Assembly (NCBI GenBank): GCA_040437565.1
Contig: JBDOQK010000003.1
Span: 806,001-870,000 of the forward strand
Length of the DNA stretch: 64,000 nt
Reading direction: 5' to 3'
From: Albugo candida
Taxonomy: Eukaryota
Below the pieces are notes generated by a model. It made no database searches. It was not told the origin of the DNA and saw only the letters and a program-made list of their open reading frames with translations. The position numbers and the translations under genes were made by a program. This document shows, one piece after another, positions 51,706 to 54,037 of the stretch; position 1 is the stretch's first letter, and every line of letters begins with the position of its first letter.

Positions 51706-54037
51706 ATGTACGGAGGATCTTCATCGAGTTGGCAGGACCGTCGCGGCGATCAATCATCGCGTCGTTCATACCCATCAAACGATAATTCATCTTCGCGTTA
51801 CTCCAACTCTGGAGGCGGCCACAGCGCATCAGGAAGTCGCTCAGGAGGCAGCGGAGGATACGGTGGAGGTGGTGGTGGAGGCTACAATTCGAGTAGACAA
51901 GGAGCTAGCTCGGGATATGGCTCTAACGGATACGGAGATTCGAGAGGCGGTGGAGGAATGGGAAGTTTAGGCGCTGAATTAGATTCCAATATTCAGTGGA
52001 ATATGGCGAAGTTACCTGTTTTCGAAAAGAACTTCTATTATGAGCATCCGGACGTCGCTCGTCGAACCGAAAAAGAATTGGAACGCTGGAAACAAGAGCA
52101 TGACATCACAACGAACGGAAAGAATATTCCCAGATGCGTGTATACCTTCGAAGAAGCCTCTTTTCCCGGTAGGAATATCTTTCCTTTTATTGCTTCTGAC
52201 ACTGTGTGTGATTGACTCTTTGTAATAAGCGTATGTGCTGGAAGAAGTCATGAGGCTGGGATTCCAAAAGCCGACACCTATTCAATGTCAGGGGTGGCCT
52301 ATGGCCTTATCTGGACGCGATATGGTCGGTATCTCTGCCACAGGATCCGGGAAAACCTTGGCGTTTTTACTTCCCGCTATAGTACACATCAATGCACAGG
52401 TTTGTGGATAGTTGTCCATTCCTACTTGTATGAACTTTGTAGCGAATTGCTGCTGGTCGCATGGGCACCAGTTTGTGAAAACATGGGGCTTAAAATAATC
52501 ATGGAGGGTATAATTGCCGAATGACGATTCTTGGTTAAAGGAAGGGATGCTTGGGAGGTGTGCGATCTTACGGATATGAGCGATGCATCAAGCAATTGAT
52601 TTCTCATAAATATAAGACGAATTGAGTATCGGCAATGTCCAAATCGCTGCAAATGCTGGTATCCACAAGCTTCACGGCATCCAGTGTACCTGACATGTAT
52701 CAAGTATCAGCGATGCTCCGTGAACACACACCTTGGCTCATCCATCACCAGCTTCGTTGCATAGTATCCATCGAACCTCTACTCAGCTTTTGAAAGAGTG
52801 TATCGGGCGTCTTTGTAACTGGTTGACCAGGGAATCTCGGCTACTCTCTGTGATTATTTCGTCCAGCAGCTTTACGTCACTTATGTATCGTCCAAATTTA
52901 TGGTTACCTGATGTTTTGTGTCTCTGTTATATTGGGCAATTTGTATCTAGCCACACCTTCAACCAGGTGATGGTCCAATTGTGCTTATCATTGCACCAAC
53001 TCGCGAATTGGCTGTGCAAATTCAACAAGAAGCAAACAAATTTGGAGCAAGTTCAAAAATCAAAAATACTTGCGTCTATGGAGGTGTTCCCAAATACAAT
53101 CAGATTATGGAGCTGCGTCAAGGAGTTGAAATCTGTATCTGGTACGAAAAATTGCGTATATTTTACTCAGATGATGTTCCCACAATGCTTTGTTTGTTCT
53201 AGTACACCTGGGCGTATGATTGACTTGCTCAGTCAAGGAAAAACGAATCTTCGTCGAGTTACGTATCTGGTGCTGGACGAAGCCGACCGAATGCTTGATA
53301 TGGGATTCGAGCCTCAACTTCGTAAAATTGTATCTCAAATCAGACCAGACAGGCAAACTCTCATGTGGTCTGCAACGTGGCCAAAAGAGATCGTATCGCT
53401 CGCTCATGATTTCCTGACCGATTACATCCAAGTAACAGTGGGCTCACTGGAATTGACCGCGAACAAGAAGATCGAACAAATTGTCGAGGTGATGGACGAT
53501 TACCAAAAGTACAACGCGTTAGTCAACCACCTTCGAGAGATTTACGATGGAGGTCGCATCATTTTATTTTGTGAGACAAAACGAGGTGCCGATGAACTCA
53601 GTCGTAACCTCCGAAACAGCCGCTACATATGCAAAGCCATTCACGGAAACAAGTCACAAGAAGAACGTGATTATGTTTTAAAGGAATTCAAGCAAGGCAA
53701 GACGCAGATTCTAGTTGCAACCGACGTTGCATCTCGTGGTTTGGATATCAAAGATATCCGCTATGTGATCAATTTTGACATGCCCAAGAATGTCGAAGAC
53801 TACATCCATCGAATCGGACGTACAGCTCGTGCTGGAAGCAAAGGAACAGCCATATCATTTTTCACATCAGACAACGGACGTCTTGCTAGTCCTCTCATAC
53901 GAGTCCTGGAAGAAGCCAACCAACAAGTCCCTGCGGCATTACGCAGTCTGATCGGTAGTGGTGGCGGTGGCGGTCGCGGTGGCCGAGGTCGTGGTGGAAG
54001 AGGAGGTGGACGTGGAGGTGGTTTCCAACGTTGGTAG
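51706..54037 (+). CDS. DBP2: DEAD-box RNA helicase DBP2/p68 (DDX5/17 family); introns near 52169-52229, 52400-52950 and 53142-53202
   Basis: [80 protein letters not shown]-rich termini. Confidence 0.96.
52398..52950 (+). promoter_or_regulatory. Long structured DBP2 intron (52400-52950) with a predicted nested stem covering the 5' splice site
   Basis: Complementary segments 52398-52410/52660-52672, 52436-52449/52640-52653 and 52513-52520/52629-52636; the intron is about 10x longer than other introns in the window. Confidence 0.6.

Follow-up and report, generated by a model that had tools for sequence, protein, structure and literature searches.

Helicases of the DDX5/Dbp2 family remodel RNA genome-wide and are harmful in excess, and their genes are held in check from within in several eukaryotes: a conserved long intron is found in yeasts, where it holds expression down, and reportedly in humans, while land plants use a helicase-sensing hairpin. 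How an oomycete deals with the same problem is the question raised by the stretch of Albugo candida DNA analysed here (64 kilobases (kb) of contig JBDOQK010000003.1, hereafter the window, to which all coordinates refer). Its DBP2/DDX5-type DEAD-box helicase gene (51706-54037, +) contains one intron, intron 2 (52400-52950, +), that is far longer than the introns around it, and an initial annotation proposed that this intron folds back over its own 5′ splice site as an element sensed by the encoded helicase. The solid result of our analysis is the selective retention of this intron, which is both long and ancient. The fold that was proposed for it fares less well.

The gene is composed of four exons (51706-52168, 52230-52399, 52951-53141 and 53203-54037, all +), which were placed by translation and splice joints, and encodes a protein of 552 residues with RGG-rich tails. 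The helicase core motifs GSGKT, PTRELA, DEAD, SAT and HRIGRTAR follow one another in the translation, between a Gly/Ser-rich N-terminus and a Gly/Arg-rich (RGG) C-terminal tail. In protein comparison, the product of exon 4 is 100% identical to the Albugo candida proteins P0002 and P0003; oomycete proteins, among them some with the name DBP2, match it at 84-87% identity. Named DBP2 proteins from oomycetes and fungi together match at 61-87%, and PF00270 and PF00271 are listed for the matches. Judged by its core motifs, its RGG tail and its best matches, the gene is the DDX5/Dbp2 orthologue of Albugo candida, in line with the initial annotation. Intron 2 is 551 nucleotides (nt) long, lies in phase 0 and separates VHINAQ from PHLQPGDGP. 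It is thus located between motifs I and Ia, just after motif I as had been stated.

Both a spliced and a retained form of intron 2 occur in public data. The stretch is present in 20 public runs, and four of them (X15, X17, X18 and X19) were treated as RNA-derived, since their contigs join exons at GT..AG, and all three introns of the gene appear in these contigs as exact GT..AG joints. Intron 1 (52169-52229, +; 61 nt, GTAGGA..AAG) is joined in three of the four runs (X15, X17 and X18) and intron 3 (53142-53202, +; 61 nt, GTACGA..TAG) in all four. These two introns are found in the spliced form only, and no unspliced contig was found for either of them in any of the four runs. The joint of intron 2, which links 52399 to 52951 and skips 551 nt, is present in X15 and X17. 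In addition, X15 contains an unspliced contig of 609 nt (52370-52978) that runs from exon 2 through the whole of intron 2 into exon 3. Its depth is 311, compared with 544 for the 58-nt unitig of the spliced form, so that the unspliced form makes up about 36% of both paths, a rough figure. In X17 the unspliced contig (52370-52572) has a depth of 3.6 against 6.1 for the spliced contig, and in X19 a contig inside the intron (52589-52760, 172 nt) has a depth of 2.8, with the exons alongside at 2.3-3.6. Unspliced intron 2 is thus found in the contigs of three of the four runs. Since introns 1 and 3 are represented by joints alone, carry-over of genomic DNA is not the cause of the unspliced intron 2. 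It is certain that unspliced junctions exist for intron 2 alone among the three introns of the gene. No alternative 3′ splice site was found in the contigs of the four runs, which hold only the 551-nt joint and the unspliced form of intron 2 and in which rare variants are dropped.

The same intron stands apart from its neighbours in length and in its 5′ splice site. With 551 nt it is roughly ninefold longer than is usual locally: the other four introns considered measure 61 and 61 nt in this gene and ~33 and ~57 nt in the upstream neighbour gene. The exceptional length claimed for it is therefore borne out. Its 5′ splice site, GTTTGT (52400-52405, +), is atypical in having T at +3 and +4, whereas the donors of the four neighbouring introns (GTAAGT, GTAAGA, GTAGGA and GTACGA) all have A at +3. 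When retained, the intron reads GTT TGT GGA TAG, so that translation would meet an in-frame TAG at the fourth codon (52409-52411, +); this immediate stop was also part of the initial annotation and can be read directly. A candidate branch site, CTGAT (52909-52913, +), was assigned from the sequence alone 38 nt before the 3′ splice site, and intron 1 has CTGAC at a comparable distance.

The atypical donor also bears on gene models. P0002, a public A. candida model of 546 residues, lacks the six conserved residues VHINAQ, as it uses a donor 18 nt upstream, GTACAC (52382-52387, +), which drops them in frame. No contig in the four runs uses this GTACAC donor. The choice made in P0002 is contradicted by the RNA-derived contigs, since these join 52399 to 52951, and P0003, which uses the donor at 52399, agrees with them. 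P0002 is thus probably wrong at the intron 2 donor, the six residues having been deleted because the atypical donor was missed.

The position of intron 2 is shared with distant relatives. Metagenome contigs were scanned with exon 4, and the 80 loci obtained were classed by how much DNA separates motif I from motif Ia. In 63 loci there is no extra DNA between the two motifs, and in seven the region is not reached, which leaves 73 informative loci. Two loci (L025 and L080) have a short insert or an intron elsewhere, and one (L018), of insect-like sequence, has a 377-nt intron at a different site, after GSGKTLA. A complete intron lies exactly after HINAQ in five loci (L001, 479 nt; L007, 419 nt; L053, 450 nt; L055, 459 nt; L056, 1001 nt), the acceptor of L007 not being cleanly placeable, and two more loci, L005 and L022, start within such an intron, with at least 658 and at least 893 nt before the same junction. 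Long introns (419-1001 nt) are therefore present at the codon junction of Albugo intron 2 in seven of 73 metagenomic orthologues, and at the other breaks in the protein matches of these seven loci the extra DNA comes to ~54-95 nt. A quick tree placed L001 apart from the other six loci, which form one tight clade, giving two lineages, both of which grouped with oomycetes and a brown alga with weak support (Shimodaira-Hasegawa-like approximate likelihood ratio test, SH-aLRT, 87). The donor of L001, GTTGCT (L001:1591-1596), has T at +3 like that of Albugo, while the six-locus clade has GTAAGT or GTAAGC.

Among the 17 proteins inspected at this junction, the Phytophthora models P0009 (P. infestans) and P0010 (P. 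palmivora) carry insertions of 42 and 43 residues exactly there, which are non-conserved and rich in Cys and Leu. They are probably translated intron sequence, and the corresponding intron would then measure at least ~126-129 nt. The two insertions agree over their last ~20 residues (..HANTSNPSALACVCFL) and differ upstream, so that the presumed intron would have a conserved 3′ portion. The residue before the exon is Leu, which is at odds with a plain AG acceptor. As the position is common to the seven loci and probably to Phytophthora, comparison of the sequences indicates that it is old and not the product of a recent insertion. Its presence in distant relatives argues against a recent independent acquisition and against a young transposon. 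The description of the intron as independently placed therefore holds in part: its site apparently differs from the fungal one, but the position itself is old and shared. Between introns at the junction, similarity by blastn or nhmmer is confined to two close pairs, L053/L055 and L022/L056. The latter two, both diatom-like, have a conserved block within the long intron (L056:3387-3610 and L022:459-668; 126 to ~224 nt aligned, ~70% identity), while their exons are only 77-78% identical, and the block carries a small hairpin (GTGATAAT..ATTATCAC in one and GTGGTA..TATCAC in the other).

The initial annotation described a rod of ~275 nt built from three nested helices, H1, H2 and H3. All of these pairings exist. 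H1 joins AGGTTTGTGGATA (52398-52410, +), which covers the 5′ splice site from -2 to +11, with TATCCACAAGCTT (52660-52672, +) through 13 contiguous base pairs (bp), two of them G-U. H2 (52436-52449 with 52640-52653, +) has 13 of 14 positions paired including one G-U, H3 (52513-52520 with 52629-52636, +) is a perfect helix of 8 bp, and both short inner stems are present in the sequence as well. The strength of H1 was assessed by fixing a 15-nt window at the splice site and shuffling the remaining intron with dinucleotide composition kept (n = 1000). A helix of at least 13 bp anchored at the 5′ splice site was then reached in 38 of 1000 shuffles, and a duplex energy of -17.5 kcal/mol or lower in 7 of 1000. 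Without the anchor, a 13-bp helix appears somewhere in intron 2 in 206 of 500 shuffles (41%).

The rod as a whole did not withstand folding. Its 275-nt stretch is no more stable than shuffled sequence (z = -1.23; 25 of 200 shuffles fold equally well), and even in the exact 275-nt cut the inner helices are improbable, with mean pair probabilities of 0.10 for H2 and 0.07 for H3. H1 has a pair probability of 0.93 in the exact cut, but adding 18-28 nt of flanking sequence on either side (52380-52700) lowers it to 0.30, and it is 0.00 from 52380-52800 upwards. Moreover, the rod is absent from the minimum free energy (MFE) structure of 52380-52970.

The dominant predicted feature of intron 2 is an end-to-end fold, which is distinct from the rod. 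It contains an 18-bp helix between 52493-52510 and 52842-52859 (+), which measures 367 nt end to end, includes three G-U pairs, is the longest helix of the intron and has a probability of 0.98 in the whole-intron ensemble. An adjacent 8-bp helix (52449-52456 with 52863-52870, +) has a probability of 1.00, and an outer 7-bp helix (52411-52417 with 52934-52940, +) also belongs to the predicted whole-intron fold. The length of the 18-bp helix was reached in 6 of 500 shuffles of intron 2. All five listed MFE helices of at least 7 bp are long-range, with end-to-end spans of 178-530 nt, and 59 pairs span more than half of the intron, compared with a shuffle mean of 22 (59 is reached in 1 of 40 shuffles). 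This fold crosses H1 and H2 and is therefore mutually exclusive with the rod unless a pseudoknot forms. H1 is transcribed 170 nt ahead of the 3′ arm of the 18-bp helix and so could form before it; a transient rod, formed co-transcriptionally, is conceivable.

Introns at this junction share a tendency to fold. The whole-intron MFE z-scores of the six complete introns against dinucleotide shuffles are -1.96 (Albugo), -3.29 (L001), -2.27 (L007), -2.97 (L053), -4.28 (L055) and -5.06 (L056). For 15 control windows of 551 nt across the 64 kb, the mean z is +0.21 and the minimum -1.55, and for 20 control windows of 450 nt from the same loci as the related introns, the mean is -0.24 with 1 of 20 at -2 or below. 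The introns at the junction are thus more self-complementary than their surroundings. Pairing anchored at the donor does not share in this, being at chance in the five other introns (shuffles equal it in 455-949 of 1000 cases when scored by length and in 132-745 of 1000 when scored by energy). L053/L055 is the only alignable pair, and it shows no clear covariation. When its single-sequence structures are used, the changed pairs comprise six kept and five broken, or two kept and five broken; alifold gives five kept and none broken, a count that is biased by construction. Rod-likeness, expressed as maximum ladder distance, exceeds the mean of the shuffles in all six introns and is clear only in L053 (0 of 40 shuffles) and L055 (1 of 40), with 2 of 15 for L056 and 7 of 40 for Albugo. 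A function as zipper stem is not supported, as the structural distance from donor to branch region is not below that of shuffles (Albugo 8 of 40; others 29-39 of 40, and 11 of 15).

A second complement to the donor was found in the 3′ region of the gene. The site TATCCACAAATC (54216-54227, +) lies ~180 nt past the stop codon and can form 12 bp with 52399-52410, with a duplex energy of -16.9 kcal/mol. The exact 10-mer GTATCCACAA occurs twice in the 64 kb, in the 3′ arm of H1 and at 54215-54224 on the same strand; as the two copies have unrelated flanks, they did not arise by duplication. Shuffling the 263-nt 3′ region produced an equally good site in 2 of 500 cases, and shuffling everything downstream of the intron did so in 7 of 200. 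Together with the 3′ arm of H1, it is one of the two best donor complements across the whole transcription unit. This site was found post hoc, and its position within the 3′ untranslated region (UTR) of the mRNA is putative. Donor masking, which we regard as a minority hypothesis, finds its strongest argument in this site. With up to one mismatch, GTATCCACAA occurs nine times in the window against a mean of 3.4, a count from which no inference is drawn, and the similar copy in a paralogous helicase gene is plain coding sequence. The copy at 54215-54227 sits right at the end of a convergent minus-strand open reading frame (ORF, 54226-54477). An Rfam match to a Tetrahymena H/ACA small nucleolar RNA (snoRNA) at 54103-54235 (+) is weak and non-significant (20.2 bits, with a gathering threshold of 100; E 4.9).

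We put at about even the probability that intron 2 is an old, long, inefficiently spliced intron that gives rise to unproductive RNA, probably under feedback by the helicase as in yeast and plants. The weak donor GUUUGU (against the local GUA.G.), the ninefold length and the extensive internal pairing would together slow splicing. A sizeable share of transcripts would then keep intron 2, meet the stop four codons in and give no helicase. Helicase output would therefore depend on how much of the RNA is spliced and how much retains the intron, a balance that most likely responds to the activity of the helicase itself, as the cases of S. cerevisiae DBP2, S. pombe dbp2 and plant DRH1 suggest by analogy. 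We infer that retention is selected rather than merely tolerated, and that analogy makes feedback by the helicase on intron 2 retention the most likely form of control. Which pairing would serve as sensor, if any does, can likewise be inferred at best, and a sensor structure is unproven.

Several observations weigh against this reading. Depth is one mean value per contig, and a stable excised intron could raise the value of 311 in X15, which makes the figure of ~36% uncertain. X18 has no coverage of intron 2 or its junction, so that the evidence on this intron comes from X15, X17 and X19. Retention may also be normal for long introns with weak donors in an organism of short introns. No sequence similarity was detected between the Albugo intron and the other introns at the junction by intron-versus-intron blastn or nhmmer, and L053 and L055, with 94% identity, have to be taken as one case rather than as two independent ones. 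The reverse complements fold with similar z-scores (-1.5 to -4.6), and the lack of strand asymmetry points to inverted repeats in the DNA and not specifically to RNA structure of the sense strand. Finally, if ~126-129 nt is the whole of the Phytophthora intron, length is not conserved within oomycetes.

Several of these points would be expected of a neutral intron, inherited with its length and poor donor, which is handled slowly by a spliceosome used to short introns and has no regulatory role, its pairings being due to chance. We give this explanation a real chance, well short of even. It accommodates the weak donor, the 551 nt against 33-61 nt for the neighbours, the lack of sequence conserved across lineages, the folding excess that is symmetric between strands, and the mixture of kept and broken pairs in L053/L055, which is a single pair of loci. 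It leaves unexplained why the junction intron is the long one in three lineages whose introns in this gene are otherwise short, and why each of the six complete introns is predicted to fold more stably than its shuffles and outdoes 34 of the 35 control windows; selected, regulated long introns are moreover known in the same gene family of fungi and plants. The model of the initial annotation, in which a ~275-nt rod made of H1, H2 and H3 covers the 5′ splice site and remodelling by the helicase decides between splicing and decay, is unlikely. As general background, DDX5 acts on structures at 5′ splice sites. In favour of the model, plant DRH1 has an established helicase-sensing hairpin at a splice site, H1 is unusual when anchored at the splice site and is transcribed before the 3′ arm of the competing helix, so that it could form first (with a probability of 0.30 in 52380-52700), and a second, independent donor complement lies in the 3′ region, the shared 10-mer occurring at just two places in 64 kb. 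These points are offset by the rod's z-score of -1.23, its improbable inner helices, with H2 and H3 at probabilities of 0.14 or less, the loss of H1 in the full intron and from the MFE structure, its topological incompatibility with the strongest helix, the ease with which a 13-bp helix arises in shuffles, the post hoc origin of the 3′ site and the five introns at the same junction without donor pairing beyond chance. In addition, H1 masks the productive donor, and unwinding by the helicase would therefore raise splicing, which is positive and not homeostatic feedback and differs from the yeast and plant cases. Improbable, too, is the broader view that stramenopiles own an ancient sensor of helicase activity in the form of a long, structured, detained intron after motif I, with the Albugo donor masked by two redundant elements, in the intron and in the 3′ UTR, that Dbp2 opens to gate splicing; this would be a third independent solution after those of opisthokonts and land plants.

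The two remaining explanations concern the material of the intron itself. A stable non-coding RNA (ncRNA) hosted by the intron, either a snoRNA or a stable intronic RNA, could be the source of the intron reads in place of retention, an alternative that the initial annotation had offered. Contig depth cannot tell an excised intron from unspliced RNA, the coverage in X19 consists of the intron-internal 172-nt contig alone, and intron 2 is more structured than shuffles. On the other hand, the contigs of X15 and X17 cross the junction of exon 2 with the intron, and those of X15 also cross the junction with exon 3. No Rfam family was matched in intron 2 in a search of 51500-54300 at E up to 10, where the sole hit lies outside the intron and is non-significant, nor in the introns of the seven related loci, Rfam holding few stramenopile snoRNAs. 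We regard this source as very improbable. That the bulk of the intron is a degraded foldback transposon or miniature inverted-repeat transposable element (MITE), whose inverted repeats mimic structure, is hardly credible. The excess of self-complementarity is equal on both strands and the strongest feature is an imperfect 18-nt inverted repeat; yet no copy of intron 2 was found elsewhere in the 64-kb window by blastn (best match 17-31 nt at E >= 0.35), Pfam searches of its four ORFs gave nothing below E 0.04 and thus no coding remnant, and the position is common to distant relatives. The initial annotation had named a recent transposon insertion as grounds for discarding its proposal, and the present data speak against one. 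Slow, regulated splicing of an old intron thus continues to be our preferred reading.

The surroundings of the gene offered some further observations. P0003 (1137 residues; 48671-54037) merges the helicase with upstream ubiquitin-like and 6-pyruvoyl-tetrahydropterin synthase domains, and similar fusions occur in models from Lagenidium, Peronosclerospora and P. kernoviae. Their recurrence suggests a conserved gene order combined with repeated mis-merging of the helicase with upstream genes. A further, distant DEAD-box helicase gene at 40040-41228 (-) is 30-33% identical to the DBP2 protein. The RNA-derived contigs show strain differences at 53022 (T>A; X15 and X18) and 53974 (T>G; X18), and none was seen within the 551-nt intron, which is fully covered in X15 only. 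Between 54620 and 55834, ORF segments that are nearly identical (PIISPSHCFTVSRHYSGDLREL and ..PNHLSLPQLIKAIEKKFQSNNLYDKK..) flank a run of N at 55115-55214, an arrangement suggestive of a duplication made in assembly or of a tandem repeat.

Long, poorly spliced regulatory introns in DDX5/Dbp2 genes and helicase-sensing RNA structure are already established. The Albugo case departs from these in intron position, in supergroup and possibly in the cis-element, and no report of such an intron in oomycetes or diatoms was found in the literature searched. If our preferred reading is true, the gene has an oomycete/stramenopile-like counterpart of the known introns at a different position, and the same control logic would have evolved recurrently, here in a third eukaryotic supergroup. 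If, in addition, the sensor reading is true, such sensors would seem to be general to the DDX5 family. As such a counterpart, the intron would also provide a compact natural test case, 551 nt in size with a single weak donor and two sites that are candidates for masking.

In S. cerevisiae, the DBP2 intron is located in the 3′ part of the gene, near motif VI. The corresponding part of the Albugo gene, exon 4 (53203-54037), runs unbroken from the TPGR motif to the stop, and hence there is apparently no intron at the conserved fungal/animal DBP2 position. Shared with the fungal/animal system are a long intron and an unspliced form that accumulates while the other introns are removed, although the proportions are uncertain. 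Precedents for intron-based control of these helicases in yeasts, of which the initial annotation had invoked that of S. cerevisiae, are described in PMC4695336. S. cerevisiae DBP2 resembles the Albugo gene in belonging to the same subfamily, in having one unusually long intron, in the accumulation of unspliced RNA and in the unproductive outcome of retention. Autoregulation through that intron is on record (Barta and Iggo 1995, cited in PMC4695336), and retention is relieved in a helicase-dead mutant (PMC4695336); dependence on helicase activity is thus shown in yeast, whereas in Albugo it is proposed by analogy. In S. pombe dbp2, according to the same text, intron 2 promotes decay and is bound by Mmi1, the exosome being targeted through TNAAAC motifs and this YTH protein (PMC4695336). 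The likeness to Albugo is that one intron is selectively retained while the other is spliced efficiently, which lowers the output of helicase mRNA; the position differs, and by eye the Albugo intron has no TNAAAC motif. Human DDX5 and DDX17, of the same subfamily, have a conserved, poorly spliced retained intron (Moore et al. 2011, cited in PMC4695336), which, unlike that of Albugo, is at the yeast-type position.

Long yeast introns, such as that of RPL7B, can contain zipper stems (PMC12311795). The whole-intron fold of Albugo is similar in pairing the 5′ third with the 3′ third, and differs in that the structural distance between donor and branch region is not shortened relative to shuffles. 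The closest parallel in mechanism comes from plants, where the DEAD motif in DRH1/RH14 and RH46 acts as a sensor of helicase activity (PMC12218528; 10.64898/2026.01.23.701338). It is a single hairpin with a stem of 19-20 bp and a loop of 3-5 nt, which conceals an alternative 3′ splice site until the helicase opens it, and it is reported as absent from algae (10.64898/2026.01.23.701338; PMC12218528). Because the site it hides is an alternative one, unwinding lowers output. Among the MFE helices listed for the Albugo intron there is no short-loop hairpin of 19-20 bp, and the contigs contain no alternative 3′ site; its candidate helix is long-range, with 249 nt between the arms, and would hide the productive 5′ splice site. 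Plant DRH1 nevertheless resembles the Albugo gene in other respects: the encoded helicase is of the DDX5 type and has an RGG tail, a long intron contains RNA structure that involves a splice site, and there are unproductive isoforms with an early stop.

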